Source: Gemmatimonadaceae bacterium (GTDB taxonomy: Bacteria > Gemmatimonadota > Gemmatimonadetes > Gemmatimonadales > Gemmatimonadaceae). Taken from it: a DNA stretch of 49,636 bases. Made by a program: the position numbers and the translations under genes. This document shows positions 22,337 to 49,636 of the stretch, one piece after another. Position 1 is the first letter of the stretch. Each line of letters begins with the position of its first letter. Location: assembly GCA_043758185.1 (NCBI GenBank), contig JAYVNZ010000006.1, positions 1 through 49,636 on the forward strand, read 5' to 3'. Below the pieces are notes generated by a model that was given only the letters and a program-made list of their open reading frames with translations, was not told the origin of the DNA and ran no database searches.

Positions 22337-23884
22337 ATGAACGAACGCCGGCGTCCTCCACGTCGCGGCCGCGCAACCCGCCCGAAGAACGACCCTGCCG
22401 CCGAGAATGGCGGTGAGGACAATCCGTATCGCGAAGCGTCCCTTGGGCCGGATGACGGCGCGGAGCCGAGCGGGCCCGAGGCCAGCCAAGGCGCCCCGGT
22501 GGAGCGCGTGGTGCGCGAACCGGACAGCGCTCCGGTTGGAGATGTGCCTGCAGCGGCTGGCGAGGACAGCGGCGGTACGATGCCGGCGCCGCCGGATCGC
22601 ACTCGGCCGGAGAACGGGGTGGGTGGCGGCCATCCGCGGGAGAGAGAAGGCCAGAACGGGCGGCGAGGTCGGCGCAATCGTGGTCGTGGTCGGCGCGAGC
22701 CGGGTCAGGCATCTCCGGAGCGGGTGGCGGGTGTACCACAGCCCTCCGCGCCCGTGGTACTGGTGCCCACGGGTGAGACGACCGGCTGGTTCGACCCGTC
22801 GCGCGATGGCGGGTTCATTCGGCGCGCGCTGGGGAGCTACCTGGCTGATGCGAGTGATGCATACGTGCCACCGCACCTGGTGCGACAGTTTGCGCTTCGC
22901 AAGAGCGATGAAGTCACGGGCACCACGGGGCGTGACCCCCGGGGTCGCAACGCGCTGATCGAGATCACGCAGATCAACGCGGGGGATCCTGCGGACGCTG
23001 CTCGGCGTCCCGAATTCAATACGCTCATCGCGACGTACCCGGAGCGGAAGCTCTTCCTGGAGACCGGCCGGCCGGCGAAGGGCGGTGCGGAACTGATCCG
23101 GCGCGCCATCGACCTCATTGCGCCAATCGGCTATGGGCAGCGTGCACTGATCGTGGCGCCGGCGCGTGCTGGCAAGACGACATTGCTCCATGCGATCACT
23201 GAGGGCATCGCGATCAATCATCCGGCCGCGAGCCTGTTGATCCTGCTGGTGGACGAGCGTCCGGAGGAAGTGAGCGAGGCCATCTCGTGGGGGGTGGGCG
23301 AAGTCATTGCATCGAGCTTCGACCAACCGGCGGCGCGCCATGTGGAGGTCACCGAGATGGTGCTGGAGCGTGCGCGGCGGCTGGTGGAGACGGGTCGTGA
23401 CGTGGTGATCGTGCTCGACTCGTTGACGCGCATGGCGCGCGCGCACAATACGGCGGAGCGCGGGACGGGGCGCACGATGTCGGGCGGACTGGATGCGCAG
23501 GCGATGGCGAAGCCCAAGGCGTTCTTCGGGTCGGCGCGCGCGGTGGCGCCGTCGTCGGGTGGCGGCTCGTTGACGATCATCGCGACGGCGCTCGTGGAGA
23601 CCGGCTCGCGGATGGACGACATCATCTTCGAGGAGTTCAAGGGCACGGGCAACTGCGAGATCAAGCTGGATCGTTCGCTGGCGGAGAAGCGGATCTATCC
23701 AGCCATTGACATCGCGACGAGTGGGACGCGGCGAGAGGAGAAGCTGTTTCGCGCCGACCAGCTGGATCACGTGTACACGCTGCGCCGCGGGCTGGGGCAG
23801 ATGCCGCCGCAGTCGGGTATGGAGTGGCTGATCAAGCGCATTGGGAACACCACCAACAACGATGCGTTGCTGACGGGGTTGTGA
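22337..23884 (+). CDS. rho: transcription termination factor Rho with extended Arg/Gly/Pro-rich N-terminal region
   Basis: Has the OB/CSD-like RNA-binding block (GFIRR...YVPPHLVRQFALRKSDEVTG), Walker A (APARAGKTTLL), LLVDERPEEV and the C-terminal RecA-type domain. Confidence 0.95.
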   Translation: MNERRRPPRRGRATRPKNDPAAENGGEDNPYREASLGPDDGAEPSGPEASQGAPVERVVREPDSAPVGDVPAAAGEDSGGTMPAPPDRTRPENGVGGGHPREREGQNGRRGRRNRGRGRREPGQASPERVAGVPQPSAPVVLVPTGETTGWFDPSRDGGFIRRALGSYLADASDAYVPPHLVRQFALRKSDEVTGTTGRDPRGRNALIEITQINAGDPADAARRPEFNTLIATYPERKLFLETGRPAKGGAELIRRAIDLIAPIGYGQRALIVAPARAGKTTLLHAITEGIAINHPAASLLILLVDERPEEVSEAISWGVGEVIASSFDQPAARHVEVTEMVLERARRLVETGRDVVIVLDSLTRMARAHNTAERGTGRTMSGGLDAQAMAKPKAFFGSARAVAPSSGGGSLTIIATALVETGSRMDDIIFEEFKGTGNCEIKLDRSLAEKRIYPAIDIATSGTRREEKLFRADQLDHVYTLRRGLGQMPPQSGMEWLIKRIGNTTNNDALLTGL

Positions 23885-23987
<103 letters not shown>

Positions 23988-24025
23988 CAAGGGGTGAGGT
24001 TTGAGGGGTAAGGGGTGAGGGAACG
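23988..24025 (+). repeat. GGGGTRAG-type G-run block
   Basis: CAAGGGGTGAGGTTTGAGGGGTAAGGGGTGAGGGAACG has four G runs of at least 3 nt, separated by loops of 10, 3 and 3 nt. Confidence 0.8.
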
Positions 24026-24082: not shown

Positions 24083-26386
24083 ATGCACCTGTCCTGCCGT
24101 CTGGGGCGTCTGGCGCTCGCGCTCGTGGCGAGCGCCTTTGCTACGCCTTCCCTTGCCGCCCAGCTGCCCCGTCACGACGTCGCGCCGGCGCCAGAAGTGG
24201 CGTCCGTGCAGTTCGATGGGGCCACGAAGGCGATCGACCTCGTGGAGCTCCAATCCAACATCTACACCGAGCCGACGCGGTGCCGGAGCTTCGCGCTCGC
24301 GTTGTTCTGCCGATTCACGCGGTATCGGGGATTCGAGGAGCGGCACTACCTGAATCGCCAGGAGCTCAAGCGCGACGTCCTCCGCATTCGCGTGTTCTAC
24401 TTTCGCGAGGGGTACCGCGAGGCACAGGTGGACACGACGGTCACGCAGGTGAACGACAAGCAGGTTGCCGTTCGGTTCCACATCGTGGAGGGCCTGCCGA
24501 CGGTCGTCTCGGGGGTCACCATCGCGTACGACTCGGCGATGTTCACGCCGAAGAAGGTGAAGCAGCTCAACCTCGTGGAGACGGGCCGGCCGCTCGACCT
24601 GTTCGAGCTGGATTCCACGCGAATCCAGTTCCAGAACGCGCTGTGGGATGAGGGGTATGCCGACGCCCTGGTCGATACGTCCACGGTGGTGGACCAACCT
24701 GCGCACACGGCGCGTGTGCAGATTCGCCTCGTTCCCAACCACCTCACCACGGTGGGGGAAATTGCGATCCAGGGCACGAACCAGGTTGCACCCGCGACGG
24801 TACTCAACTCCCTGAGCTTTCGTCGCGGTGACCTGTTCCGCCGGTCGGCGATGATCGAGAGCCAGCGCAACCTCTACGAGTCGAACCTGTTCAAGCTGGC
24901 GGCGCTCGACGTGCCGGAGACGTTCGACAGTGCGAAGACGGTGAACGTGCTGGTGCGCGAGGCGCCGCTGCACGAAGCGCGAATCGGCGGCGGATTCAAC
25001 ACGGTGGATTTCCTCCAGACGGAAGGCCGCTTCACGCATTACAACCTGCTTGGTGGTGCCCGGCGCCTGGACATTTCCGCCAGCGTTGGCAACCTGCTTG
25101 CCAGCAGCCTGAACGGAAAAGGGCTGTTCCATCGGCAGCTCGATGACACCACGATCACCGGCAACGGTGGCGACTTCCTGCAGCCAACTTACCAGGCGAG
25201 CATCGAGTTGAAGCAGCCGGCGTGGCTGCAGCGTCCGCGCAATGCGCTCGCGGTGGGCGCATTCGCGCAGCGCCGAGCGGTGCCGTCGGTGGTGATAGAC
25301 CGCGGGTATGGTGGCAACCTGACGTATACGCGGACGCTCGCGATTCGCGCGCCGGCCAGCCTGTCGTATCGCTTCGAGGTGACGCGTGTGGAGGCGGGAG
25401 GCCCGTACTTCTGCGTGAACTTCGGCGTGTGCGACACGACGTCGATTGCGGCGCTGCGCTCGCACCAGCGACTGTCGCCAGTCACGGGGCAGCTCCAGGT
25501 GGATCGCTCCGACCAGCCGCTGAACCCCATGCGCGGATACACGGCGCGTGCGGAGCTCGAGCACGCGTCCTCGTTCACGGTGTCCGACTACCGCTACAAC
25601 CGCGCGTACGCCGAAGGGGCGTTGTATTCGCGCATGGGCGGGAAGAACTCCGTGTTGTCAGCGCACCTGAAGATCGGATTCGTGCGGCCGCTGAGCGGGT
25701 CCGGCATGTCGAACACGTCCGTGCTGCACCCGCGCAAGCGCTTTTATGCCGGCGGATCGCAGTCCGTTCGTGGCTACGGCGAGAACCAGCTGGGGCCGCG
25801 TATCCTGACGTTGCCGCATGGGTTCCTGGCGCATGCCACGACCGCGAACGGCGCGCCGTGCGACGTGAATTCCGATGCCGTGCGCTTCTGCGACCCGAAC
25901 ACGGCGCGCGACACGACGGCGAAGGATGGCGTGTTCGGCGCCGTGGGCGACGACAAGTTCACGCCGCGTCCGCTGGGTGGGACGTCGTTGCTTGAGGGAA
26001 GCATCGAGTATCGCTTTCCGCTCGGCTTCCTGCAGGACCTGAGTGGTGCGGTGTTCCTGGACGGCGCGGCCGTGGGTGAGCGCATCCTGGATCCGTTGGG
26101 GTCCGGCGTGCGCACGCTCGCTGACCTCGTGCGCGGGACGGGCGCCATCACACCGGGCTTCGGTGTGCGGTACCTGACGTCGGTGGGACCGATTCGCGTG
26201 GACGTGGGGTTCAATCCCTCTCGTGCGGAGAAGCTCGCGGTGGTGACGGAGGTGGTGCGCAATGGCAAGCTGGAGATCGTCCCGCTGGAGATCCCGAAGC
26301 TGTACTCGGCGACGGGAACGTCGACTGGCATCGGGGCGATCCTGAATCGGTTCACGTTGCACCTGTCGATTGGCCAGGCCTACTGA
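24083..26386 (+). CDS. Omp85-family outer membrane protein (POTRA repeats + D15 surface-antigen barrel), TamA-like partner of TamB
   Basis: Signal peptide MHLSCRLGRLALALVASAFATPSLAAQ. POTRA-like N-terminal repeats are followed by a C-terminal barrel ending ...LHLSIGQAY. The stop overlaps the tamB ATG (TGATG at 26384-26388). Confidence 0.9.
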   Translation: MHLSCRLGRLALALVASAFATPSLAAQLPRHDVAPAPEVASVQFDGATKAIDLVELQSNIYTEPTRCRSFALALFCRFTRYRGFEERHYLNRQELKRDVLRIRVFYFREGYREAQVDTTVTQVNDKQVAVRFHIVEGLPTVVSGVTIAYDSAMFTPKKVKQLNLVETGRPLDLFELDSTRIQFQNALWDEGYADALVDTSTVVDQPAHTARVQIRLVPNHLTTVGEIAIQGTNQVAPATVLNSLSFRRGDLFRRSAMIESQRNLYESNLFKLAALDVPETFDSAKTVNVLVREAPLHEARIGGGFNTVDFLQTEGRFTHYNLLGGARRLDISASVGNLLASSLNGKGLFHRQLDDTTITGNGGDFLQPTYQASIELKQPAWLQRPRNALAVGAFAQRRAVPSVVIDRGYGGNLTYTRTLAIRAPASLSYRFEVTRVEAGGPYFCVNFGVCDTTSIAALRSHQRLSPVTGQLQVDRSDQPLNPMRGYTARAELEHASSFTVSDYRYNRAYAEGALYSRMGGKNSVLSAHLKIGFVRPLSGSGMSNTSVLHPRKRFYAGGSQSVRGYGENQLGPRILTLPHGFLAHATTANGAPCDVNSDAVRFCDPNTARDTTAKDGVFGAVGDDKFTPRPLGGTSLLEGSIEYRFPLGFLQDLSGAVFLDGAAVGERILDPLGSGVRTLADLVRGTGAITPGFGVRYLTSVGPIRVDVGFNPSRAEKLAVVTEVVRNGKLEIVPLEIPKLYSATGTSTGIGAILNRFTLHLSIGQAY

Positions 26387-29300
26387 TGCTGCGCCGCCTG
26401 TTCCGCCTGCTCGTGGTGCTCAGCGTGGTGGCGATCCTGGGGGTCGTTGCCGTGTGGTTGCTCACGAACACGGACTTCGGGCGGGAGCGTTCGCGGCGAT
26501 TCGTGGTGGACCTGTTGAACGCACAGACGCACGGCATCGTGAAGGTCGATGCGATGCACGGAAACCTGCTGAGTGGGGCGACGCTGGTGCGCGTGTCGAT
26601 CACGGACAGCGCGGGCCACCCGTTCCTCAAGGCGGATTCGATTTCGCTGCAGTACGTGCTGCGGAGCTTCCTCTCGCAGCGGCTCGACTTCGACAACGTG
26701 ATCGTGTATCACCCGGATGTCGTGGTGGCACGGCTGCCGGGCAAGGAGTGGAACTACCGCATCCTGTGGCCCTCGTCGCCACCGCGAGCGCCAGGCGACA
26801 CGCTGCCCGGATGGGGATCGACGGTGCGCCTCACGAACATGACGGTGGTGAATGGCTTCGTCACCGTACGGTCGCTCTGGGCACCGCGGGAGGGCGTGTC
26901 GGCACGGGTGCGGGACAGCATCATCGCCGATGCATTGGGCGCGGGATCCCGCCTGTACATCAACAAGGCGGCAGGCGGCTACCAGAAAGTCGTCACGCTG
27001 GAGCGTGTGAACGCCAAGGTGCCCTTCGTGCGATGGGCCGATCCCGCATTCAAGTACCGCTACGTCCAGGTTGCGGCGCTGACCATGGATGCGTTTCCCT
27101 TCCGCCCGCCCGCTGCGCACGTGACGGCGCTCACGGGAAATTTTTCCTTCAGCGACGACTCGCTGTGGTGGAAGGGTGCGAACGCCCGACTTCCCCGCTC
27201 GGCGATGAAGGGCGATGGAGTGTACAATCTCAACAACGGCGACATGCGGCTCACGCTGGCGGCAACGCCGGCCGCATTCGCGGATTTTCACTGGTTGTAT
27301 CCGCACTTCCCCACGTCGGGAGGTGGCAACCTGGGCATGACGGTGCAGTGGAAGGGGGTGACGCAGGATTACGTGATTCGAAGCGCCGACCTCCGCACGG
27401 GTCCATCGCACTTCACCGGCGACCTCGGCGTCACGGTGACGGATACGGTGTTCTTCCATGATGCGAACGTGCGCTTCACCGGCGTCACGACGAAGCAGAT
27501 CGAGGACGCGGCGCCCGGGATCCACTCACCGCGGCAGGGAGTGCTGTCTGGGCGCGCAAATTTCAGCGGCACGCCGAAGCGCATGACGCTCGATGCGGAC
27601 ATCACCTTCGCCACGGCGACGCGGGGCACCAACCGTGTCGCGGCGATCGGCGTCGTGGGCTTCACGCCCACCAAGCCCGTTGTCGTGAGCGCGCGTGACC
27701 TGCACGTGCGCGTTGCTCCCCTGCAGATCGACATCGTGAAGCTGCTGTTCCCCACCCTGCCCATTGGTGGCACGCTGAGCGGCACGGCGACGCTGAACGG
27801 GTCTGGGGCGCAACAACTCGTGGCGAGCGACCTGGACATCGTCCACCAGGATGGGCGCAATATTTCGCACGCCGTTGGGCGCGCGTCGGTGCACACGATC
27901 GGCAGGCAGACGATGGACCTGGATGTGGAGGCGCGGCCGATTGCGCTTGCGGAGTTGACGAAGTTTGCGCCGACGCTGCTGTTGAAGGGACTGGCGCATG
28001 GCTCCGTGCATGCGCACGGCCCCATCGACGCGATGAAAGTCGACACGCGACTGTCACTTCCCGGCGGGGGCCAGTTCGGGCTCACTGGTACGGTGGATTT
28101 CCTGTCCAAGGAGCTTGGCTACGATGTCCTGGCCGACGCCACGCGGCTCGACCTGAGCTGGGTGATGCTGTTCGGGCCGGTGACCTCGCTCAACCTGGCT
28201 GGGCGAGCGCGCGGGCGCGGGTTCAAACCGGCCACGATGTACTCGGACCTGGAGTTCACGTTTGGTGCCTCGTCCATCGACACGATTGGCGTGGATTCGG
28301 CGTTCGTGCGCGCGCGGCTCGCCAATGGCGTGGCGAACATCGAGCGCGCGCATCTCCAGGGCTCGGGCACGAAGATCGACCTGGCCGGCCAGCTGGGTCT
28401 CGACTCGTTGCATGCAGGCGCGCTGACATACGCCGTGGTGGTGGATTCGTTGTCGAAGTTCGCGCGGTTCATTCCGGGCGCCACCTCGCCGACGCCGGAT
28501 ACGCTCATCGTGAAGCCGCGACCGCGGATTGCGTACGAAGCGCTGCGGCGCGCGCGCGCGGATTCGGCGAAGGTGGCCAGGGAAACGGAGGTGCAGCGTG
28601 CGATCGCCGACCTTCCACCTCCGCAGCTGAAGCTGCCCACCGACATTCCGCGCGCCATCCCGAAGGGACTGCTGGCAGGCAGGCTGAAGGCAAACGGCAC
28701 CATCAAGGGGTCACTTGACCGCTTCTCGCTCGAAGGTAGCGTTACTGGCGACAGCGTGGTGGTGCAGGGCAATTCGGTGCGCCGATTCAACGCGACTTAC
28801 AGCTGGCTCGATGCGCGCACGAAGAAGTCGACAGTGAATGCATCACTGCGCGCCGATACGGTGAGCGCGTTCGGCTTTGCATTCGACAGCCTGGCGGGTG
28901 ACCTCAGTTACCTCGCGCCAAATGGTACGCTCGACTTTCGCGTACGCCAGGGCACGCAGCGCGATTATGGGCTGAACGGCGACTTCACGGTCGACAAGGC
29001 GCGCAACGAGCTGCGGTTGAGGGACATTGCCCTGCGCTTCGACAGCACGACGTGGAGGACCACGCATCCGGCGATCGTCCGGTTTGGCGCAGCAGGTGTT
29101 GAAGTCGTGAACCTGGAGCTGCGCGACGGCCCAACGCGTCGCATCTATGCAAACGGGCTGCTGCCCTCGAAGGGCACGGCGAACTTCGACCTGCAGGTCA
29201 CGGACTTTGCCGTGGAGAACGTGGCCGAGTTGCTCCAGAGCGACCTGGCGGTGACGGGTCGGTTGAACCTGGATGCGCACGTCACGGGCACCGCGGAAGA

Positions 29301-30996
29301 TCCGCGCGTTGCGGGCAAGCTCGACTTCGTGAAGGGCACATACAACGAAACGCCGGTGCCCGAGTTGCACGGCACGTTTGCCTACGCCAACAGGCAGTTG
29401 ACCACGGATGCGTCCGCGATGGACTCCACGGGCAAGGTGCTCGCGAGTGTGAAGGGCACGATTCCCATTGACCTGGCGTTGTCCGGCGTGACCGGATCGC
29501 GGCTGCTCGACCTGCCGCTGAGCGTCACGCTTGCGTCGGACAGCCTGCCGATCGGCCTCATTCCGCAGTTCACCGGCGCGGTCACCGACGTGAAGGGCCG
29601 AGTGATTGGGAACGTCTCCGTCGCGGGGACGTTGAAGAAGCCGGCGTTGAAGGGAGACCTGACGCTGAGCGAGGTGCAATTCCGCCTGGCGGCTACGGGC
29701 GCAGTGCTGGAGCACGTGAATGGCCGTGTGCGGATGACGGGCGACAGCGTGTACGTCGATTCCATTGCGGGCATTGCCAATGGACCGGTGCGCCTGTCCG
29801 GCACGGTCGCCGTCGGCAACTGGCGCACGCCGACGTTCGACCTGTCTTTCACTGCACGCGATGCGCAGCTCATCAGCAACGCGAGCGGCGAGTTGCACAC
29901 GGATGCGGACCTGCATATTGGTGGCGGGCTCACCGGCCCCACGGTGACGGGGGCGGTCACAGTGCAGCACGGCGTGCTGTACATCCCCGAGTCACGCGGC
30001 AAGAAGATCATTGGCGCGGGCGATCCGTCGCTGTTCAGCGTGATCGACACGTCGCTGGCGATCCAGCGGGACCTGTTTCCGGCGCAGTCCGCATTGTTCA
30101 AGAACCTGAAGGTGGACGTGGACTTCAACGTCCTGCGCAACACATGGGTGCGTTCGCGCGATGCGAACGTGGAGGTGTTCACGGACGGGCCGTTGAAGAT
30201 GAACGTGGTGGGTGATGCATTGTCGCTCACGGGAGCCATCGATGCGGACCGTGGGGAATACACCTTCCTTGCCAAGCGTTTCCAGATCAAGCGCGGATCG
30301 GCGATGTTCATCGGCACGCCCGACCTGAATCCCACCGTGCAGATCACGGCCGAGTATCAGGTGAAGCAGGCGGCTGGCACGGCAACGAACATCCGTGTGC
30401 TGGTGGGTGGCACGGTGTTGCGGCCGCGTATTTCGCTCGAGAGTGATGCGCAGCCGCCGTTGTCGCAGAGTGACTTGTTGAGCTACCTCGCGTTCGGTGA
30501 ACGGTCCACGTCGCTGCTGCAGTTCAACCAGACGTCGCTGTCGCCGACGGGGGGCAACCTTCTGAACGTGGCCGGTTCGCGGCTGGCCGGCATTGCGGTG
30601 GGTGTTGCCCTGGATGAGTTGAAGGGCAGTGCTGCGCGGTCGCTGGGGCTCGACGTCTTCAACGTGACGCCGGGCGACATTCCTGTGCTGAATGGCCAGG
30701 GTGGGCTGGACCAGTTCTTCAAGGGCACGGAGATCGAGGCTGGCCGGTACATCAATCCGCGCACGTTTGCGTCGTTGATCTTCACGCCGGGTGCGCTCAC
30801 CTGCAAGACGGGTCATGCGCAGAATAGTTCGTGCGCCCCTCCCGGAGCGACGATCACGCATCGCACTGCGCGCGGGTTGCGCCTGGATGTGAGTTACAGC
30901 CCGCGCTATTTCCTGGATCCGCCAACGCTTGCCGGGCAGACGTTTACGGGTGGCGGGCAGTTCGGGGCGTTCCTCATTCGCGAGTGGCGGTTCTAA
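26386..30996 (+). CDS. tamB: translocation and assembly module protein TamB (DUF490 C-terminus)
   Basis: 1536 aa with an N-terminal membrane anchor (LFRLLVVLSVVAILGVVAVWLL) and a long beta-rich body. The C-terminal DUF490-like block is (...GRYINPRTFASLIF...) and the protein ends ...LIREWRF. Confidence 0.9.
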   Translation: MLRRLFRLLVVLSVVAILGVVAVWLLTNTDFGRERSRRFVVDLLNAQTHGIVKVDAMHGNLLSGATLVRVSITDSAGHPFLKADSISLQYVLRSFLSQRLDFDNVIVYHPDVVVARLPGKEWNYRILWPSSPPRAPGDTLPGWGSTVRLTNMTVVNGFVTVRSLWAPREGVSARVRDSIIADALGAGSRLYINKAAGGYQKVVTLERVNAKVPFVRWADPAFKYRYVQVAALTMDAFPFRPPAAHVTALTGNFSFSDDSLWWKGANARLPRSAMKGDGVYNLNNGDMRLTLAATPAAFADFHWLYPHFPTSGGGNLGMTVQWKGVTQDYVIRSADLRTGPSHFTGDLGVTVTDTVFFHDANVRFTGVTTKQIEDAAPGIHSPRQGVLSGRANFSGTPKRMTLDADITFATATRGTNRVAAIGVVGFTPTKPVVVSARDLHVRVAPLQIDIVKLLFPTLPIGGTLSGTATLNGSGAQQLVASDLDIVHQDGRNISHAVGRASVHTIGRQTMDLDVEARPIALAELTKFAPTLLLKGLAHGSVHAHGPIDAMKVDTRLSLPGGGQFGLTGTVDFLSKELGYDVLADATRLDLSWVMLFGPVTSLNLAGRARGRGFKPATMYSDLEFTFGASSIDTIGVDSAFVRARLANGVANIERAHLQGSGTKIDLAGQLGLDSLHAGALTYAVVVDSLSKFARFIPGATSPTPDTLIVKPRPRIAYEALRRARADSAKVARETEVQRAIADLPPPQLKLPTDIPRAIPKGLLAGRLKANGTIKGSLDRFSLEGSVTGDSVVVQGNSVRRFNATYSWLDARTKKSTVNASLRADTVSAFGFAFDSLAGDLSYLAPNGTLDFRVRQGTQRDYGLNGDFTVDKARNELRLRDIALRFDSTTWRTTHPAIVRFGAAGVEVVNLELRDGPTRRIYANGLLPSKGTANFDLQVTDFAVENVAELLQSDLAVTGRLNLDAHVTGTAEDPRVAGKLDFVKGTYNETPVPELHGTFAYANRQLTTDASAMDSTGKVLASVKGTIPIDLALSGVTGSRLLDLPLSVTLASDSLPIGLIPQFTGAVTDVKGRVIGNVSVAGTLKKPALKGDLTLSEVQFRLAATGAVLEHVNGRVRMTGDSVYVDSIAGIANGPVRLSGTVAVGNWRTPTFDLSFTARDAQLISNASGELHTDADLHIGGGLTGPTVTGAVTVQHGVLYIPESRGKKIIGAGDPSLFSVIDTSLAIQRDLFPAQSALFKNLKVDVDFNVLRNTWVRSRDANVEVFTDGPLKMNVVGDALSLTGAIDADRGEYTFLAKRFQIKRGSAMFIGTPDLNPTVQITAEYQVKQAAGTATNIRVLVGGTVLRPRISLESDAQPPLSQSDLLSYLAFGERSTSLLQFNQTSLSPTGGNLLNVAGSRLAGIAVGVALDELKGSAARSLGLDVFNVTPGDIPVLNGQGGLDQFFKGTEIEAGRYINPRTFASLIFTPGALTCKTGHAQNSSCAPPGATITHRTARGLRLDVSYSPRYFLDPPTLAGQTFTGGGQFGAFLIREWRF

Positions 30997-31000
30997 GAGC

Positions 31001-31063
31001 GGGAGACGGGGGACAGCTCGCTCGCTGACGCTCGCTGGACGGGGGACGGGGGATGGGGGACAG
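31001..31063 (+). repeat. G-rich post-stop element, copy after tamB
   Basis: Sequence is GGGAGACGGGGGACAGCTCGCTCGCTGACGCTCGCTGGACGGGGGACGGGGGATGGGGGACAG. It starts 5 nt after the TAA at 30994-30996. Confidence 0.9.
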
Positions 31064-31248
31064 AAAAAGGGACGCGTTCGTCACCGGAAGTGGACGAGGT
31101 GACAGCTGTCCTCTATCGACGTCACCCAACTAACTCCTTGATGTGCATCGCGTTGCCGACGCGTGGTGCGCATCGCGACGACTGGTATCGCGCATGCTTT
31201 GAGGACTGAGTGCCGCGCAACCCTGCGCGCGTTCATCCCGGAGATCCC

Positions 31249-31911
31249 ATGCGTCTCACTTCGCTCGTAATGGCCGGCATCATCGCCGCCGCACTGTTCG
31301 TTGCACCAGACATTGCATTGGCGCAGTCGCGCGCGAATGGGTCGCGAGCAACGACCGATGCCGCAACGCTGTTCGATGTCACGCCGTATGCGGGCTACAT
31401 GGTGTTCGGCAGCTATCTCTCCGGACCGCTCGGCACGTCGTTGACGAATGCGCCGGCGCCCATCTATGGCGTGCAACTCGGGATGAAGATTGCGCCCAGT
31501 ATCTCCGTCATCGGCAACCTTGCCACGGCGAGCAGCGACATCCAGGCGGGCATTCCATTCCTGGGCGGGGTGTCCGTGGCGCGAAGCACAATGCTGCTGT
31601 ACGACGCCGGGCTCCAGCTCGACATCCCGGTCACATCGGCGTATGGCGCGTCATTTTCCCCGTTCCTGCAGGCAGGAGCTGGCGCGATGCGGTACGACAT
31701 CACGCAGTCCTTCATCTCCACGACCGCGACGAATCTCGCCGGGAACGTAGGCGTCGGGGCGGACGTCGCTGTGGGGCGTGGCGTGGGCATGCGGGTGATG
31801 GCGAGGGATTACATCGGCAAGTTCGACGTGCAGCAGGCGACGTCGTTCGACATCTCGAGCAATACGACGCAGAGCTTTGCGTTCAGCGCGGGGATGCGGT
31901 TTTCGTTCTAA
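31249..31911 (+). CDS. small outer-membrane beta-barrel protein (OmpW/OmpA-barrel-like)
   Basis: Signal peptide MRLTSLVMAGIIAAALFVAPDIALAQ. Alternating beta-strand pattern with a C-terminal ...AGMRFSF beta-signal. GGAG lies 7 nt before ATG 31249. Confidence 0.8.
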   Translation: MRLTSLVMAGIIAAALFVAPDIALAQSRANGSRATTDAATLFDVTPYAGYMVFGSYLSGPLGTSLTNAPAPIYGVQLGMKIAPSISVIGNLATASSDIQAGIPFLGGVSVARSTMLLYDAGLQLDIPVTSAYGASFSPFLQAGAGAMRYDITQSFISTTATNLAGNVGVGADVAVGRGVGMRVMARDYIGKFDVQQATSFDISSNTTQSFAFSAGMRFSF

Positions 31912-31912
31912 T

Positions 31913-31964
31913 GGCGGGGGACGGCTCGCTCGCGTTCGCTCGCTGGACAGGGGACGGGGGACAG
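31913..31964 (+). repeat. G-rich post-stop element, copy after the OMP gene
   Basis: Sequence is GGCGGGGGACGGCTCGCTCGCGTTCGCTCGCTGGACAGGGGACGGGGGACAG. It starts 2 nt after the TAA at 31909-31911. Confidence 0.9.
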
Positions 31965-31972
31965 GACGAGTA

Positions 31973-32503
31973 TCAGTGGCCTGTGCGTTCTACCGTCTTG
32001 CCGCCGAAGTTTTCCGTTGTGACGTTCTTGTTGACCTGGAGCGAGCGTACATAGCTCACGAGCATCCAGATCTGATCCGGCGAAATGAGGCTGCCCCACG
32101 CGGGCATTCCCTCGGGGCGACCCTGGTAGATGGACTCGAATACCTCTGCTGGTTCGCCGCCAAAGTGCCATCGGCCATCGGCGAGACTGGGGCCCATGGC
32201 GCCGCTGCCGTCGGCACCGTGGCAGTCGATGCAGTTGTAGGCGACGAACAGCTTGGCGCCGGTGGCAATCGCTGCCGCGTCGCCTTCGTGCGGGTTGGTG
32301 AGCGGCATGCCGACAAAGGGCTTCACCATCCCGGGCTGGATATGCTCGGCGTGGGAGACGAACCGGGCGGCGAGGTCCTGCTGTGCGGTCGTCGCCTGGA
32401 TGCGTGGCGGCGTTCGGGGCTCTGCGGCGCGTGAGTCGCGGCAGGCCTGGAGCGGAATGCTGAGCGCAATCGCCCATGTGGTGATCAACGCGGCTCGATT
32501 CAC
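31973..32503 (-). CDS. mono-haem c-type cytochrome, probable lipoprotein (electron acceptor candidate for the adjacent PQQ dehydrogenase)
   Basis: Has the haem motif CIDCHG plus a distal Met region (GRPEGMPAWG). The N-terminus is MNRAALITTWAIALSIPLQAC. GTG 32503 is preceded by GGAGG. Confidence 0.85.
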   Translation of the reverse strand: MNRAALITTWAIALSIPLQACRDSRAAEPRTPPRIQATTAQQDLAARFVSHAEHIQPGMVKPFVGMPLTNPHEGDAAAIATGAKLFVAYNCIDCHGADGSGAMGPSLADGRWHFGGEPAEVFESIYQGRPEGMPAWGSLISPDQIWMLVSYVRSLQVNKNVTTENFGGKTVERTGH

Positions 32504-32641
32504 AGGACCTCCGTTGGGAGTCAGCAGTTGTTCGTTGGAACGCGAATCCGGCGAATCTCAACAACATCTACGCGAATTGCTCCATTGTGCGAACGGCGGA
32601 CGTCGCGGCACGAGCGCGATCCATTCGGTGCACGAGTCGCG

Positions 32642-32716
32642 CCGTCCCCCGTCCAGTGAGCACCAGCGAGCGGGCCGTCAGCCGTCCAGCGAGCGAAGCG
32701 AGCGGGCTGTCCCCCC
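32642..32716 (-). repeat. G-rich post-stop element, copy after the PQQ dehydrogenase (inverted relative to the other copies)
   Basis: The minus strand reads (TA)GGGGGGACAGCCCGCTCGCTTCGCTCGCTGGACGGCTGACGGCCCGCTCGCTGGTGCTCACTGGACGGGGGACGG. The first G of the element is the last base of the TAG stop. Confidence 0.9.
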
Positions 32717-34539
32717 TATAGTGAGAACACGAACAACATCCCGCCCCAGCTCGTCCAGCGCGCGATGTCGGGCAGCGTGGAGCCCCGTTCACGCACATCG
32801 TACGGCAGGTTGGCTGCCACATCGCCGGCGATGAGCAAGCCCATGTCACCGCCGATGCCGGCATAAATCGCGACATACTGCTTGCCATCGGGGCCGAGGT
32901 AGGCGATTGGGTTTCCGACAACGCCCGATCCGAGCTTGAACTTCCAGAGCACCTTCCCCGTGCGGGCGTCAGCAGCCTTGAACCATCCGTCGAGCGTGCC
33001 GTAGAATACGACGTCGCCCTTGGTGGCGAGCGCGCCACCCCAGACGGGATACGGCTCCTTGATGCCCCAGACTTTTTTCCCCGTTGTGGCGTCCCACGCG
33101 ATGAATTCACCGCGGTAGCCGCCCGGTCCGGCGACTTCGGGCGCATTGCCGCCGATGTATGGCGTGCCGGGAATGTACGACACCTCGCGCGCCTCGAAGT
33201 CCATGCAGAGGTTGTTGGTGGGAACGTAGAAGAGGCCCGTTGCCGGCGAGAATGCTGCGGGCTGCTGGTTCTTTCCGCCCTCCAGGCTGGGACAGATGAA
33301 CGACACCTTCTTGCCCTGGAACGGCACCTTCTCGGCGTTCAGCGTGGGACGTCCGGTGGCCAGGTCGATTCCGCTGGCCCAGTTCGTCGGTACGTACGGC
33401 TTGGCGAGAATGACCTCACCGGTCGCGCGATCCATGGTGTAGGCGAAGCCGTTGCGATCGAAATGGACGAGCGCCTTGCGTGTCTTGCCGGCGATGGGCA
33501 GGTCGGCGAGGATGTTCTCGTTGACGGCGTCGTAGTCCCACACGTCGTGCGGCGTGGGCTGGAAGGCCCAGACCATCTCGCCGGTGTCGGCATCCCGCGC
33601 GATGATGGCGGCGCTCCACTTGTTGTCGCCGGGCCGCTGCTTGCCGTTCCATGGGCCCGGGTTCGATGTCCCGTGATAGACGAGGTTGAGCTCGGGATCG
33701 TAGGAGAGCCAGCCCCAGACGGTGGCCCCGCCCTGCTGCCAGGTGTTGGATGGCCAGCTGGTGGCGCCCTGGTTGGCGCTCGTGTCGGACTTGCCGTAGA
33801 AGGGCTTGAACCGCTTGCCGACCTTGATGTCGGCATCGGGTCCGATGTTGTAGGCGCGCCAGAGCTCCTTGCCGGATGTGGCATCGATGGCGGCAATCCA
33901 GCCGCGCACGCCCATTTCGCCACCGCTCGATCCAACGATGACCTTTCCCTTCACGACGAGCGGCGCCATGGTCATGGTCTCGCCCTTGGCGAGGTTGCCC
34001 ATCTGCGTCCGCCAGAGCAGTGCGCCTGTTGCGACATCGACGGCGACGGTATGTCCGTCGAGCAGGTTGTAGAAGATCTTTCCATCGGCGTACGCAGCGC
34101 CGCGATTGACGACGTCGCAGCACGCGAGCCCGACGGCCGTTTGTGAATTCTCCGGACGCACCTTCCACTTGAGTGGCTGGCCTTCGGTTGCGAGGTCGAG
34201 CGCGTACGACACGTTGGGATAGGGCGTCACGACGTACATCGTGTTGCCCACCACGAGTGGCTGGCCTTCGTGACCGCGCAGCACGCCGGTGGAGAAGGTC
34301 CAGGCGGCGTGCAGGTTCTTGACGTTGTCGGGGGTGATCTGCGCGAGTTCACTGTATCGCGACGATGCGTAGTCGCCCGCGGGGACGTTCCATTCGCCGG
34401 CAGGTCCCGTGCGTGGCGCGGCGATGCGCGTGCCCGACACGGTCGTGGCACTGGCACCGGCGGAATCCGTGGCCGGCGACGGCGCGCGGCCGCAGCCAAT
34501 GACAAGCAGTCCAGCAATGGTCAGGCAGGTGCAGCGCAT
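32716..34539 (-). CDS. PQQ-dependent methanol/ethanol-family dehydrogenase (XoxF/ExaF-like), probable lipoprotein
   Basis: Has AWTFSTGVLRGHEGQPLVVGNTMYV, the vicinal Cys pair in LACCDVVNRG, GGEMGVRGW, RPGDNKWS and TPHDVWDYDAVNE. ATG 34539 follows GAGG. The N-terminus is MRCTCLTIAGLLVIGC. Confidence 0.92.
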   Translation of the reverse strand: MRCTCLTIAGLLVIGCGRAPSPATDSAGASATTVSGTRIAAPRTGPAGEWNVPAGDYASSRYSELAQITPDNVKNLHAAWTFSTGVLRGHEGQPLVVGNTMYVVTPYPNVSYALDLATEGQPLKWKVRPENSQTAVGLACCDVVNRGAAYADGKIFYNLLDGHTVAVDVATGALLWRTQMGNLAKGETMTMAPLVVKGKVIVGSSGGEMGVRGWIAAIDATSGKELWRAYNIGPDADIKVGKRFKPFYGKSDTSANQGATSWPSNTWQQGGATVWGWLSYDPELNLVYHGTSNPGPWNGKQRPGDNKWSAAIIARDADTGEMVWAFQPTPHDVWDYDAVNENILADLPIAGKTRKALVHFDRNGFAYTMDRATGEVILAKPYVPTNWASGIDLATGRPTLNAEKVPFQGKKVSFICPSLEGGKNQQPAAFSPATGLFYVPTNNLCMDFEAREVSYIPGTPYIGGNAPEVAGPGGYRGEFIAWDATTGKKVWGIKEPYPVWGGALATKGDVVFYGTLDGWFKAADARTGKVLWKFKLGSGVVGNPIAYLGPDGKQYVAIYAGIGGDMGLLIAGDVAANLPYDVRERGSTLPDIARWTSWGGMLFVFSL

Positions 34540-34574
34540 CGGTCCTCGGTCCACTTGGTAAGGGGCCACCGACA

Positions 34575-35032
34575 TCATGCCTTGCGCGATGTCGCTTGTG
34601 ATCGCTCGTGCATTGCGATGTAGTCGTCCACCGGAAGAGACGCGATGGATGCGGCAATGGCATCGAGCGCCAGGTCACCGGCATGCTTGAAGCGCACGCA
34701 CCCCTTGCCAATATCCAACCGCTTTCCTGCCCTGGCGAACGCCTCCTGGAGGCGCTCCGCTCCGTTGGCATCCAAGTACACCCCACGAGGTGCAGCGCGT
34801 TGTATTGCGTCTGTGCGGCAAGGCCCACGTAACCCAGCGGCTGGCCGTTGTATGTTTTCGGATAACGGCTCAGCGGCACGGGGTAGTAGACCATGCCGCA
34901 GGCCATTCCCTCGACGTACCCCGCCGGAAGGCTGGCGACGATGACGTCGCGCACACGGGCGATCTCGGCGCGGTTTGCGTCCGGCAACTCCCACAGGTAT
35001 TCATCGACTGTTGTTGCAGTGCTCTTTGGCAT
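34575..35032 (-). pseudogene. DUF1801-family gene interrupted by a 1-nt frameshift at a G/C run
   Basis: The N-terminal half is in one frame (MPKSTATTVDEYLWELPDANRAEIARVRDVIVASLPAGYVEGMACGMVYYPVPLSRYPKTYNGQPLGYVGLAAQTQYNALHLVG). The C-terminal half is in the -1 frame (VYLDANGAERLQEAFARAGKRLDIGKGCVRFKHAGDLALDAIAASIASLPVDDYIAMHE). The two frames join at the CCCC run at 34781-34784. Confidence 0.65.
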
Positions 35033-35461: not shown

Positions 35462-35492
35462 GTGCGGAGCAGACAGGAGCAGAACCAGCCAA

Positions 35493-35603
35493 AGCAGGTC
35501 CTTCGCTGCGCTCAGGACGACACGCGGGCGTTCATCCGAGAGCAGCTCCTGCGCCGCGCTCAGGACGACATTCGTGTGCTTCGCGGCGTGGAGGACGACG
35601 CGC
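35493..35603 (-). repeat. three diverged tandem units of the GTCGTCCTGAGCG-AGCGAAGGAC element
   Basis: Plus-strand units are AGCAGGTCCTTCGCTGCGCTCAGGACGACACG (35493-35524), AGCAGCTCCTGCGCCGCGCTCAGGACGACATTCG (35541-35574) and the degenerate GTGCTTCGCGGCGTGGAGGACGACGCGC (35575-35603). Confidence 0.85.
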
Positions 35604-38809: not shown

Positions 38810-38831
38810 GGGTGCAGCCTGGGCGGGAAAA

Positions 38832-38910
38832 AGCAGGTCCTTCGCTTTGATGGAAGAGAGCAGGTCTTTCGCTTCGCTCAGGACGACAAGTGCTTCGCTC
38901 AGGACGACAA
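38832..38910 (-). repeat. GTCGTCCTGAGCG-AGCGAAGGAC element, 2.5 units, between sdhC and sdhA
   Basis: Plus strand reads AGCAGGTCCTTCGCTTTGATGGAAGAG AGCAGGTCTTTCGCTTCGCTCAGGACGACAAG TGCTTCGCTCAGGACGACAA. It lies 4 nt after the sdhC stop and 22 nt before the sdhA ATG. Confidence 0.9.
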
Positions 38911-38914
38911 GGCG

Positions 38915-39706: not shown

Positions 39707-39777
39707 CGCGCGCGTCCCCGGAATTAGAGTGGCGCTAAGGTACGGGCGGCGCTGGGGCACGGGAAGAGCAACGAGGG

Positions 39778-39808
39778 AGCAGGTCCTTCGCTGCGCTCAG
39801 GACGACAG
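39778..39808 (-). repeat. GTCGTCCTGAGCG-AGCGAAGGAC element, single unit
   Basis: Plus strand reads AGCAGGTCCTTCGCTGCGCTCAGGACGACAG. It abuts the esterase stop (39811-39813) and lies upstream of sdhC. Confidence 0.9.
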
Positions 39809-39810
39809 GG

Positions 39811-41433
39811 TCACGGCACGGGGCGCAGGTATGGGGTCAGCGGGTTCGATGGGCCAAGCGAACGCAGCCCCTCGACAATCGACCTGGCATTCAGCTCAGC
39901 GCCGGCTGCACTCGAATGCAGGTTGGCGTCACCGAAGAGCGAGTCGACCGTTGCCATCGGCATCGTATCCATCTTCGACGACGCGATCTCCGTGAGATTC
40001 ACGAACGGTACGTGCTCGGCGCGCGCCGTCTCGTGCGCCCAGTCGGCGAAGCTGTTCCTGTTGCGGACAATCTTCCCGTCCTTCCAGAACTTGCGGGGCG
40101 TGAGCGAATTGATGATCGGTATTGCCCCCTTCGCGCGTACTTCGTTCACGAACTTCCGAATGTACCCGCCGAAGCTGTAGACCACCTCGCCCTTCTGCTT
40201 CGTGAGCAGGTTGTCGATGATTACGGAATCCGCGCCGATCCCGGGCAGCACACCCCGCGCCCGTGAGGTGTCGTTCACCGGGCTCGCGTCGTTGTGGCCG
40301 AACTCCAGCATCACGAGGTCGCCAGGCTTGAGCAGCGTGAGGACCTTGCTCCAATAGCCCTGAGTGATGAACGTGCGGGCGCTCAGTCCGCCGACGGCGC
40401 GATTGACGACGTTGATCTTCGTGGTGTCGAAGTACGGCGCGATGAAGTCGCCCCAGCCCCACTGGTTGCCCGCACCATCGCCACGACCGTTGCGCACCGT
40501 GGAATTGCCAACGAGATACAGCGTGGGCAGGTCGCGATTGGCTGGCCAGCCGAGTCCAAGACCCACCAGTTGATCGGCCGGCACCGTCGCGCCCTTTGCC
40601 GAGAGCCAGGCGCGCACCGGGCTCGGTCGCAGGGCCTTCAGCCCCGACACCACCGTTCTCGCGTGGACGTCTGCGCCGATGGCGTTGAAGTGCGTGTGGT
40701 CCTGCTCGTAGATCGACTTCACCCTGTCCTCGCCCATCGCCTGGAAGCGATCGGCCACGAGATTGGTGAGGTCGATGAACTGCACGCCGGCCGACTTGGC
40801 GATCTGCTGCGACCACAGGCTGTATCGCCCGGACCCGCGCTCGATCTGCCCGTTTGCCCAGATGTTGCGCACAGAGAGCGAGAGCACGATGGGCGTGGCA
40901 CCCTTCGCCTTCGTGTCGGCGATCATCTTCCGCATGTACCAGCCGAAGGAATGCACGACTTCATGCCGCTTCGTCAGCAGGTTGTCGATCGCGATGGAAT
41001 CGTCGCCCAGTCCGGGAATGGAGCCACGGGCGCGCGAGGTGTCGTTGATCGCGCCGGCATCGTTGTGGCCGAACTCGATGAGGACCACGTCGCCTGGCTT
41101 GAGGTCGGTGACGATCCTGTCCCACAAGCCTTCGGTGATGAAGGTGCGGCTGCTACGACCGCCGCGCGCTCGATTGGCGACGTTCACCTTCGTGGTGTCG
41201 AAGTAGTCCGCGAAGGGCACGCCCCATCCCTGCTGTCGTGCTCCCGCCCCGCGTGCCGCGGTGGAATTGCCGGCGATGAAGATGGAAGGGAGTGCCGGGT
41301 TGAGCGCGGAGGCGGGCGGCGCGGATCCCGCGGGGACGCCCCGCGAAGTTGGTGGTGTCGCGCAGGCGAGCGTGCCGGCGAGTGCCGCGAGCACAGCGGC
41401 GAACATCGAATGGCGTGCCTTCAAGCTGCCCAT
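39811..41433 (-). CDS. tandem-duplicated SGNH/GDSL hydrolase (rhamnogalacturonan acetylesterase-like), lipoprotein
   Basis: Two homologous halves are present (IFIAGNSTAARGAG...GHNDAG...DHTHFN and LYLVGNSTVRNGRG...GHNDAS...DANLHS). The N-terminus is MGSLKARHSMFAAVLAALAGTLAC. Confidence 0.85.
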   Translation of the reverse strand: MGSLKARHSMFAAVLAALAGTLACATPPTSRGVPAGSAPPASALNPALPSIFIAGNSTAARGAGARQQGWGVPFADYFDTTKVNVANRARGGRSSRTFITEGLWDRIVTDLKPGDVVLIEFGHNDAGAINDTSRARGSIPGLGDDSIAIDNLLTKRHEVVHSFGWYMRKMIADTKAKGATPIVLSLSVRNIWANGQIERGSGRYSLWSQQIAKSAGVQFIDLTNLVADRFQAMGEDRVKSIYEQDHTHFNAIGADVHARTVVSGLKALRPSPVRAWLSAKGATVPADQLVGLGLGWPANRDLPTLYLVGNSTVRNGRGDGAGNQWGWGDFIAPYFDTTKINVVNRAVGGLSARTFITQGYWSKVLTLLKPGDLVMLEFGHNDASPVNDTSRARGVLPGIGADSVIIDNLLTKQKGEVVYSFGGYIRKFVNEVRAKGAIPIINSLTPRKFWKDGKIVRNRNSFADWAHETARAEHVPFVNLTEIASSKMDTMPMATVDSLFGDANLHSSAAGAELNARSIVEGLRSLGPSNPLTPYLRPVP

Positions 41434-49595: not shown

Positions 49596-49636
49596 CCGTG
49601 CGAAACGAAAAGGGTGGAAGGTGCGTATCGAACTGG

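Follow-up and report, generated by a model that had tools for sequence, protein, structure and literature searches.

G-rich pause or termination elements that act through a G-quadruplex or R-loop include the mitochondrial CSB II and the MAZ pause sites (G5AG5) that follow poly(A) signals. Cyanobacteria reportedly carry heptanucleotide tandem repeats named STRR, said to have been described by Mazel et al. in J Bacteriol in 1990, of which STRR1 has the unit CCCCAGT (complement ACTGGGG). MIRU (mycobacterial interspersed repetitive units; Supply et al. 1997) are intergenic repeat units of 40-100 bp used for VNTR typing; they can be transcribed with the neighbouring genes, occur at filled and empty orthologous sites, and vary in number between strains (summarised in PMC3184786). 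REP-type repeats are mostly located 3′ of ORFs, in spacers that are unidirectional or convergent, and in many cases they contact the stop codon; their superfamilies are tagged by GTAG or CGTC, and the CGTC families have a stem of 8-9 bp and a loop of 4-5 nt (PMC3733652).

Here we analysed a stretch of 49,636 nucleotides from a Gemmatimonadaceae bacterium (the window), in which G-rich tracts follow the stop codons of four genes (Table 1). We consider, with a probability of about 0.6, that the elements are a short, non-palindromic dispersed intergenic repeat of a Gemmatimonadales subgroup, MIRU/REP-like in kind. The coordinates and stop-codon distances given for all four tracts in the initial annotation were confirmed.

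Table 1. Genes and repeat tracts at the four sites (coordinates of the window; TRF, Tandem Repeats Finder)
Feature	Coordinates	Strand	Details
rho gene	22337..23884	+	Stop 23882-23884; Pfam Rho_RNA_bind and ATP-synt_ab
G-rich heptad tract, GGGGGAC-like x3	23885..23910	+	Begins at the first base past the rho stop
Heptanucleotide microsatellites	23910..24021	+	(GTCAGCG)x11 at 23910-23986; (AGGGGTG)x4.6 at 23990-24021 (TRF)
tamB gene	26386..30996	+	Stop 30994-30996; TamB_N/TamB Pfam matches on the identical contig L120; upstream of copy 1
Copy 1, post-tamB	31001..31063	+	Core starts at 31001; one 45-nt unit 31005-31049, then GGGGGAC-type heptads 31037-31063; nhmmer E=7.3e-13
Outer-membrane beta-barrel (OMP) gene	31249..31911	+	Stop 31909-31911; Pfam OMP_b-brl; exact protein already on record; direct copies on both sides
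Copy 2, post-OMP	31913..31966	+	One unit 31914-31957 plus heptads; nhmmer E=3.1e-11
Cytochrome c gene	31973..32503	-	Pfam Cytochrome_CBB3 and Cytochrom_C; inverted copies on both sides
Copy 3, post-PQQ dehydrogenase	32642..32716	-	Runs from 32716 down to 32642; two overlapping head-to-tail units, 32716-32675 and 32683-32642, period ~33 nt (TRF: period 33, 2.5 copies); nhmmer E=1.6e-9 and 3.5e-8
PQQ-dependent dehydrogenase gene	32716..34578	-	TAG stop 32716-32718; Pfam PQQ and PQQ_2; upstream of copy 3

The sites after tamB, OMP and the PQQ dehydrogenase share, far beyond chance, a unit of about 45 nt with the form GGGGGACGG-CTCGCTCGCT-NNN-CGCTCGCT-GGACGGGGGACGG, which can also be written GGAC-GGGGGACGG / CTCGCTCGCT-NNN-CGCTCGCT / GGACGGGGGACGG. 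The tamB copy showed 89% identity with the OMP copy across 47 nt and was 84% complementary to the PQQ copy across 45 nt. Compared with shuffles, the 33-nt composite GGGGGACRGCYCGCTCGC-N2-3-CGCTCGCTGGAC was observed three times with 0.00 expected; the 12-mer CGCTCGCTGGAC was also observed three times in the window (0.03 expected). Through nhmmer with a profile of the unit, we found matches in the window at these three sites only (E 7e-13 to 3.5e-8), the PQQ site being resolved into two units. Each locus contains one to three units, arranged head to tail and surrounded by (GGGGGAC)n heptad tracts, and a 10-nt CGCTCGCTGA period was also detected among the repeats by Tandem Repeats Finder. The units are limited to the first ~45-75 nt of spacers of 212-252 nt, and copy 2 fills the 61-nt convergent spacer up to the cytochrome c stop. 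The unit contains no conserved ORF, and the single ATG-initiated ORF of the tamB copy is not kept in the relatives L185 or L186. The window copies are identical in two independent Logan assemblies, so the elements are not assembly artefacts.

Four copies of one family had been proposed. Three of them stand, with profile E values of at most 3.5e-8; the tract after rho does not, since it lacks the CGCT module and gave no match to the unit profile even at E<1. The rho tract is related to the family through the GGGGGAC-type heptad only. At the same place after rho, L185 carries GGGGACGGGGGACGG, and the heptad tract is absent there in L184, L189, L191, L193, L195 and L196.

In close syntenic relatives, the unit was found in the same three spacers, directly past the stop codon, and its number and sequence differ from one relative to another as in a VNTR: the tamB, OMP and PQQ spacers of L184, L185, L186, L187 and L062 contain 0-3 units with differing linkers. 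At the OMP site, L186 and L185 have G-heptads only. At the tamB site, L189 contains a pure (GGGGGAC)x9 with no unit, and in L187 the G-rich GGGTTGGGTGGTGGGTGG follows the stop in place of the unit. The tamB and OMP copies of L184 are each other's best match (0.83), as in partial concerted evolution. No unit exists at any of the sites in L191, L193, L195 and L196, of which the OMP identity is 69-77%; in L193, GGGGACAGG immediately past the tamB stop is a possible seed. Alignment A1 revealed copy 1 as an insertion between the tamB stop and a conserved OMP-leader motif. Because the spacers of more distant relatives are empty at these positions or contain GC hairpins or another hairpin repeat, the unit is a young and dispensable insertion. 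The outgroups contain GC-rich hairpins at the rho and OMP sites where the element sits, a position that would fit a terminator having been functionally replaced.

Beyond the gene cluster of the window, the unit was also found at five loci, and the 45-nt composite recurs with 80-90% identity at unrelated loci and genomes (L106, L042, L181 and L159). It lies in the divergent spacer between amidohydrolase and AIM24 genes in the Gemmatimonadales MAG JBBRZK01 (L106, E=1.7e-11), in front of an acyl-CoA dehydrogenase gene in a Gemmatimonadaceae MAG (L042, E=1e-8), at an rplM/IVP locus (L181, E=1.3e-10) and at a TetR locus (L159), where an inverted pair of units folds into a long hairpin (z=-3.8). One unit is read as an N-terminal extension of a TetR gene. 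When the genome collection was scanned with the 18-mer GGGGGACRGCYCGCTCGC, about 115 of the 119 loci among the matches listed were chance coding matches, and among the same listed matches L042, L062 and L106 are real units. The chance 18-mer matches were GDGPLA-type codons in Streptomyces, Micromonospora and others. A gapped pattern gave 62 loci in the metagenome scan, nearly all of them chance coding matches; only L159 and L181 are real. Of the others, L163 resembles a chance match of low GC, and the status of L155, L133 and L137 is doubtful. Viral contigs scanned with two unit patterns gave no match.

When about 180 kb of Gemmatimonadota sequence chosen without regard to the motif was examined, units appeared in the rho-tamAB-OMP-cytc-PQQ cluster only. 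Such a confinement is unusually local for a dispersed repeat and counts against our main reading. So do the starts of the three window sites and of L159R, a fourth independent site, which all lie 0-11 nt past a stop in sense polarity, and the location of the rho and OMP elements where outgroups have GC-rich hairpins. No transposase or RAYT was detected by Pfam among the 29 window genes, and the copies showed neither terminal inverted repeats nor a clear target-site duplication; flanking GGGGACGG direct repeats are present and could equally be slippage substrates.

The initial annotation had described the elements as always G-rich on the sense strand and always placed after stops, and had argued from this for an RNA-level role such as 3′-end formation. 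A profile search and a tabulation of orientation, which it had itself proposed, were run on the window and on related contigs. The unit is indeed post-stop and sense at the three window sites and in close relatives, and the polarity in the window matches the upstream gene; the description as a real repeat family of this placement, not random simple sequence, therefore holds for the source genome and its close relatives. However, the PQQ copy is G-rich only to a slight degree (G/C 1.23; C/G at the 19th percentile over 78 nt), and the orientation of the OMP copy is ambiguous: the tamB/OMP and PQQ/cytochrome c spacers are unidirectional, whereas the OMP/cytochrome c spacer is convergent, and this copy also lies ~8 nt from the cytochrome c stop and is C-rich on the cytochrome c sense strand.

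At independent loci the contexts are mixed. The unit was found in divergent spacers at L106 and L181a, abutting or overlapping start codons in antisense at L042 and L159L, and antisense after a stop at L181b. Its orientation agrees with transcription of the flanking gene at all three sites of the window and also at L159R, a further independent site that is post-stop and sense, and differs at L181b, L042 and L159L. Since the unit at other loci is divergent, start-abutting in antisense or antisense post-stop, "always after stops, always sense" is not a rule of the family. The three sites are orthologous across close relatives and their shared orientation is for this reason inherited, so that the orientation evidence is only three independent events, one of them in the convergent spacer and ambiguous. 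The adjacency to stops is largely forced, because conserved regulatory sequence follows downstream and leaves the unit little room past the stop codon; where relatives lack the unit, this gap is only 0-40 nt (alignment A1). With the rule also broken at independent loci, and with outgroups lacking the element, the step from consistent placement to 3′-end function is not supported. A genome-wide G>C bias past stop codons was ruled out as an explanation, as the window's other genes have no such trend (mean G-C = -1.0, sd 6.1, n=28), and a GC-skew or replication-strand account gave no answer, the skew profile merely tracking gene orientation.

We detected no Watson-Crick structure in the copies on either strand (folding z -1.1 to +1.9), with a canonical terminator in the same window as control (z=-4.1). 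A hairpin or intrinsic terminator was absent from all four sites by terminator scan and by RNA folding, as originally noted, and terminator-like matches were not enriched (8 found, 8.7 expected). Canonical G4 motifs (four runs of G>=3, loops <=7 nt) were found nowhere in the window. Across relatives, 2 of 19 copies contain one and 4 of 19 do so with loops up to 12 nt; this lack of conservation rules out the G-quadruplex as a family property. Rfam, suggested as a place to look for the motif, gave no match to it at gathering or permissive thresholds: the whole window had none at the gathering threshold, and between 23700 and 32900 the sole match at E<=1 was spurious, to a snoRNA inside tamB. Homology of the unit to a second hairpin repeat ("D3") was also rejected, since the unit profile matched no D3 copy. 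Both contain CGCT-N-CGCT followed by GGAC, an observation kept as a lead only.

Several other explanations were weighed. The elements might be putative RNA-level 3′ boundaries, in which a G-rich, C-poor start of the 3′ UTR would block Rho loading and/or 3′-to-5′ exonucleases, partly via RNA G-quadruplexes or R-loop-prone RNA, and would define or stabilise the 3′ end of the upstream mRNA. The four window tracts begin 0-11 nt past stops in sense polarity, the rho and tamB tracts, read as sense RNA, fall in the lowest 0.2% of the C/G ratio in the window, a G-rich tract is kept at the tamB stop where the unit is replaced (L187 and L189), the rho and OMP elements stand where outgroups have hairpins, and L159R repeats the arrangement. 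Nevertheless, we consider this unlikely, because G hardly exceeds C in the PQQ copies (G/C 1.07-1.4), the G4 motif is rare, secondary structure is absent, no G>C trend follows the stops of the other window genes, outgroups with the same genes lack the element, and elsewhere the unit sits at 5′ ends, in divergent spacers or antisense after a stop. Even less probable is that in-place slippage from short seeds, for example the GGGGAC of the OMP-leader motif, produced all elements without copying between loci. The heptads of period 7 (GGGGGAC, GTCAGCG, AGGGGTG) together with the 10-nt period, the pure heptads at the tamB site of L189, the possible seed in L193 and the copy number differing among relatives all point in this direction, but independent slippage cannot yield a specific 45-nt composite at unrelated loci and genomes. 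Purely local expansion may apply to the rho tract and the heptad component only.

The opposite strand offers candidate functions of its own, which we rate as improbable as local expansion. The C-rich, unstructured antisense strand might be a Rho loading (rut) site that halts antisense or convergent transcription, or direct repeats of GGAC and GCTCGCT, phased at 10- and 20-nt spacing, might form an array bound by a DNA- or RNA-binding protein. For an insulator, the rho and tamB tracts, read as antisense RNA, are in the window's top 0.2% of C/G and have essentially no structure (MFE -11 kcal/mol, z +0.25), but C/G is less exceptional in the copies at OMP and PQQ (98th and 80th percentile). For an array, there is the 10-nt periodicity, and the GGAC/GTCC motif recurs in the unit family, the second hairpin repeat family and the OMP leader. 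The polarity relative to genes, varying across loci, argues against both. It is equally doubtful that these ideas combine into one structure-free, strand-asymmetric boundary element, of which the sense RNA would be Rho-refractory, with G4/R-loop pausing in some copies, and the antisense C-rich rut would stop incoming transcription, the element having replaced the outgroup GC-hairpin terminators after rho and OMP. This would be a directional, hairpin-less terminator or insulator carried by a repeat family. If it were true, with transcript boundaries set in a direction-dependent way, it would bear on how transcription ends in high-GC bacteria with few canonical terminators, although it is not the reading favoured by the data so far.

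Returning to the dispersed repeat, we infer that units are copied to new intergenic sites. Units might pass from one spacer to another nearby by recombination or gene conversion, or move by transposition in trans, and later expansion and contraction would be due to replication slippage and unequal recombination across GGACGG direct repeats. Copies would persist only where they are harmless; in compact spacers, the harmless room would be the few bases from the stop codon to the next promoter or leader, and the pattern "immediately after the stop" would thus result. The sense polarity at the three window sites would be inherited by descent, possibly together with a selective filter: the G-rich orientation would be tolerated in transcribed 3′ regions because a C-rich unstructured RNA past the stop would offer Rho a place to load. 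The data can be explained without a dedicated RNA function.

A literature search by name and by sequence strings returned no earlier description of the repeat. It is an undescribed non-palindromic interspersed repeat family for Gemmatimonadales, in a poorly studied, mostly uncultured soil phylum, and a second, hairpin repeat family accompanies it in this order. The units inflate ORF calls and mark hypervariable spacers that can break assemblies, and their copy-number variation between close relatives could serve for strain markers.

Compared with the described systems, CSB II and the MAZ sites resemble the elements in having G5 runs on the non-template (sense) strand just past the gene end; however, they are eukaryotic or organellar and experimentally supported, whereas the elements here are known from sequence and have the four-run G4 in 2 of 19 copies. 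The likeness to STRR consists of tandem, strand-asymmetric 7-nt intergenic units, here GGGGGAC, GTCAGCG and AGGGGTG, although the sequences and the phylum are different and the comparison covers the heptad component only, not the 45-nt CGCT-containing unit.

REP repeats are imperfect palindromes of 20-40 nt with a stem-loop, unlike the unit, which has no self-complementarity and no RAYT or other transposase near it among the 29 window genes. The unit is similar to REP in being extragenic and, in the window and its close relatives, located 3′ of ORFs in spacers of the unidirectional or convergent type (in other contigs also divergent ones), and in occurring singly, in tandem or as an inverted pair, as at L159. 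It touches the stop codon at the PQQ site, and its reverse strand begins with CGTCC, reminiscent of the CGTC tag, though neither the tag definition nor the stem and loop sizes of the CGTC families are applicable to a unit without a stem.

With MIRU, which belong to another phylum, there is no sequence relationship. The small ORFs of MIRU overlap the flanking stop and start codons and ~40-50 exist per genome, whereas the unit has no conserved ORF, covers its spacers partially and was seen at only few loci. The likeness lies in the arrangement: 45-nt units stand head to tail, one to three per site, in intergenic spacers, where they could be transcribed together with adjacent genes; orthologous sites occur both filled and empty, and the number of units at the same locus differs among the window, L184-L187, L062 and L189.

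The window, at about 65% GC, is unremarkable chromosomal DNA from a Gemmatimonadales-like bacterium. Through Pfam and the gene table of the identical contig L120, we identified panB, panC, an EF-G-family gene, a class A PBP gene, rho, a TamA-like Omp85 gene, tamB, a small beta-barrel OMP gene, and genes for cytochrome c, PQQ dehydrogenase (PQQ-DH) and succinate-dehydrogenase-like proteins, with no transposase among the window genes by Pfam. The initial annotation had described four copies of a G-rich element following stop codons, and its coordinates were correct. Three of the tracts (tamB, OMP and PQQ) are true copies of a real family, clearly above chance by motif counts and profile E-values and not random simple sequence; the fourth, after rho, is a relative through its heptads only.

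The tamB and OMP copies showed 89% identity across 47 nt, and the tamB and PQQ copies were 84% complementary across 45 nt. The sequence CGCTCGCTGGAC occurred three times in the window (0.03 expected), as did the 33-nt composite GGGGGACRGCYCGCTCGC-N2-3-CGCTCGCTGGAC (0 expected). The profile search that the annotation had proposed was run on the window and related contigs, using a profile built on 15 units taken from this genome and its relatives; it matched exactly three places in the window (tamB, OMP and PQQ, E 7e-13 to 3.5e-8), with two overlapping units at the PQQ site, and gave no match at the rho tract even at E<1. The unit consensus, about 45 nt, is GGAC-GGGGGACGG / CTCGCTCGCT-NNN-CGCTCGCT / GGACGGGGGACGG. 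Identical copies were present in two independent Logan assemblies, so they are not assembly artefacts.

The rho tract, composed of three GGGGGAC-like heptads followed by (GTCAGCG)x11 and (AGGGGTG)x4.6, contains no CGCT module and has only the heptad component in common with the unit family. Its two microsatellites, located between rho and the TamA-like gene, were found in none of the relatives examined, and their style recalls cyanobacterial STRR heptamer arrays.

Features of the window and of related contigs (window positions unless a contig is named)
Feature	Position	Strand	Remark
rho tract	start 23885		0-11 nt past stop
Heptanucleotide microsatellites	23910-24021		(GTCAGCG)x11, (AGGGGTG)x4.6
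tamB tract	start 31001		0-11 nt past stop
Conserved spacer motif	31066-31100		A-GGGACGC-N3-TCGTCC-N8-GGAC; alignment columns ~128-165
OMP tract	start 31913		0-11 nt past stop
PQQ-DH tract	32716 down to 32642	minus	0-11 nt past stop
Inverted OMP and PQQ copies	31912-31972 with 32640-32716		
Intrinsic terminator	5833-5906	minus	z=-4.1
Intrinsic terminator	7180-7215		
D3 copies	35483-35528, 35531-35576, 38849-38911, 39768-39813		
D3 copy	48181-48226		
Gene ending within a D3 copy	48210-49634		TGA stop lies in a D3 copy
Gap with D3 half-units	38810-38914		105 nt
Gap matching the D3 half-unit gap	L184 18885-18891		7 nt
tamB-OMP spacer insertion	L184 8770-9900; L187 4920-5560		also in L188
Unit within ORF	L159 437-600	antisense	TetR-family ORF

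A terminator scan gave no match at any of the four tract sites, in agreement with the earlier remark that canonical terminators are missing there. RNA folding of the copies on both strands never beat shuffled sequence (z -1.1 to +1.9), the minus-strand terminator in the table serving as control. Canonical intrinsic terminators with a GC hairpin and T-tract exist elsewhere in the window, and therefore the organism does use hairpin terminators. The suggested Rfam check matched the tracts to no family at gathering or permissive thresholds. G>C bias after stops was absent for the window's other genes. No canonical G-quadruplex motif was found anywhere in the window, and in this and related genomes only 2 of 19 copies carried one (4 of 19 when loops as long as 12 nt were allowed); the PQQ copies were barely G-rich (G/C 1.07 to 1.4). 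Therefore, the family is defined by its CGCT/GGAC motif, not by G-richness or G-quadruplex potential.

Syntenic loci were retrieved via homologues of the OMP protein, with L062 added from a pattern scan. In L184, L185, L186 and L187/L188 (OMP identity 85-91%), the unit existed at the same three spacers, starting at the stop codon or a few bases off with unchanged polarity. Its make-up differed among these contigs, with one or two units and differing 3-nt linkers; the OMP site of L185 and L186 held heptads only, and the tamB site of L187 held another G-rich string, GGGTTGGGTGGTGGGTGG, together with a 0.7-kb insertion. The tamB and OMP copies of L184 were closer to each other (0.83) than to their own orthologues, which indicates some concerted evolution. 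Farther away, L189 carried pure (GGGGGAC)x9 after tamB, and L189 and L062 carried arrays of a different hairpin repeat, of opposite CGCT polarity, after PQQ-DH. GC hairpins stood where the window has G-rich tracts, after rho in the outgroups L189, L191 and L195 and after the OMP gene in L062 and L189. L191, L193, L195 and L196 (OMP identity 69-77%) had no G-rich element at any site.

Alignment of the tamB-OMP spacers showed a kept backbone of stop codon, GGGACGC-N-TCGTCC-N-GGAC motif and further conserved blocks, with the repeat inserted exactly between the tamB stop and the motif; genomes lacking the repeat have only about 0-40 nt there. Taken together, the syntenic loci and this alignment indicate that the element is young and dispensable, that the orientation common to close relatives is inherited, not independently evolved, and that the position right after the stop is largely the sole site sparing conserved sequence. 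The motif itself, which precedes the OMP start by about 150 nt, has GGACG/CGTCC/GGAC segments permitting alternative hairpins and accompanies the OMP gene even in L194, where the neighbour is not tamB; it probably serves that gene as a leader or regulatory element. The homologous insertions of L184 and L187 in this spacer (about 0.7-1.0 kb, apparently non-coding) have CCGGTCAGTTGA-type motifs in common; they gave no Rfam match, and a 335-aa ORF called on the insertion had no Pfam domain.

Pattern scans also found the unit at unrelated loci among the matches listed, whose flanking genes were confirmed with Pfam. L106, from the MAG that also holds L189, has a unit between divergently oriented amidohydrolase and AIM24 genes, and in L042 (a Gemmatimonadaceae MAG) an antisense unit ends 3 nt from an acyl-CoA dehydrogenase start codon. 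L159 has two sense units from the first base past the upstream ORF's stop and an antisense unit read into the N-terminal extension (MATRKRRPPSSARSARAVPSERAVPSEH...) of a TetR-family ORF, the inverted pair forming a long hairpin (z=-3.8); the antisense copy illustrates how the repeat can inflate ORF calls or become part of them. L181 carries a unit next to the start of a 23S-IVP gene, in a divergent spacer, and a second, antisense, 15 nt past that gene's stop and 146 nt upstream of rplM. Among the matches listed, the independent loci comprised four after a stop in sense (tamB, OMP, PQQ and L159R), one after a stop in antisense, to which the window OMP copy adds (the cytochrome c stop is about 8 nt away), and four at 5' ends or in divergent spacers. 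This sample, small and picked by pattern, is enough to show that lying always after stops and always in sense is not a family property: the positions claimed for the window tracts stand, but the orientation is weaker than stated and fails at unrelated loci. In related sequence chosen without regard to the motif (about 180 kb), the unit occurred only in the rho-tamAB-OMP-cytc-PQQ cluster.

A second repeat family in the window, D3 (CAGGTCCTTCGCTGCGCTCAGGACGACA), has a weak hairpin of 5 bp (GTCCT/AGGAC) whose loop is of the CGCT type. Its five copies are all oriented alike, and at least three of the four sites lie 0-3 nt past stops of minus-strand genes, the pair at 35483/35531 being tens of nt downstream of its gene's stop. 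On the gene-sense strand D3 reads GTCGTCCTGAGCG..., its CGCT polarity opposite to that of the G-rich unit, and the unit profile gave no link between the two. D3 fills the OMP-cytc or cytc-PQQ spacers in L184, L185, L195 and L196; L062 and L189 carry variant arrays (GATCCCTCGCTCACGCTCGGGATGAC), and IMG/VR has four exact matches. Two 21-nt half-units (GCTTCGCTCAGGACGACAAGT x2) lie in the intercistronic gap separating the succinate-dehydrogenase-like flavoprotein gene from its upstream neighbour; since the matching L184 gap is so much shorter, they appear to be a recent insertion inside a probable operon.

The RNA-level role proposed by the annotation is unlikely; the family is real and not random sequence, but the evidence offered for RNA function fails. 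In its favour, the tamB stop remains followed by G-rich sequence despite several replacements of the sequence there, and the tracts after rho and the OMP gene occupy the place of outgroup GC hairpins. The inverted OMP and PQQ copies could also pair across the cytochrome c cistron on a PQQ-cytc transcript (computed duplex -93 kcal/mol, versus -50 +/- 6 for shuffles), which would loop out the whole cistron; this arrangement exists only in the window and L187, and not in L184, L185 or L186. At the window sites, chance together with descent may account for the sense polarity (three events, one ambiguous). On their antisense strands, the rho and tamB tracts rank within the window's highest 0.2% for C/G ratio, and from this we infer that the polarity may additionally stem from a filter that disfavours C-rich, unstructured sequence able to load Rho immediately past a stop codon.

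Because a 45-nt unit with 80-90% identity occurs at unrelated loci in several genomes, we infer a dispersed repeat family that must be copied between loci; the unit has no terminal inverted repeats. Independent slippage as the unit's origin is ruled out by this identity. At each locus the unit behaves as a VNTR set in a heptad microsatellite, and slippage and unequal recombination have obvious substrates in the flanking GGGGACGG/GGACGG direct repeats. Among known kinds, the closest are MIRUs, intergenic tandem units of 40-100 bp, variable in number and transcribed together with the adjacent genes (PMC3184786), and REPs, which mostly lie 3' of ORFs where the spacer is unidirectional or convergent and whose ends often touch the stop codon (PMC3733652). 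The unit belongs to neither kind: it has neither the REP palindrome, nor the overlapping ORFs of MIRUs, nor sequence similarity to either. The family is an addition to the known class of short interspersed intergenic repeats.
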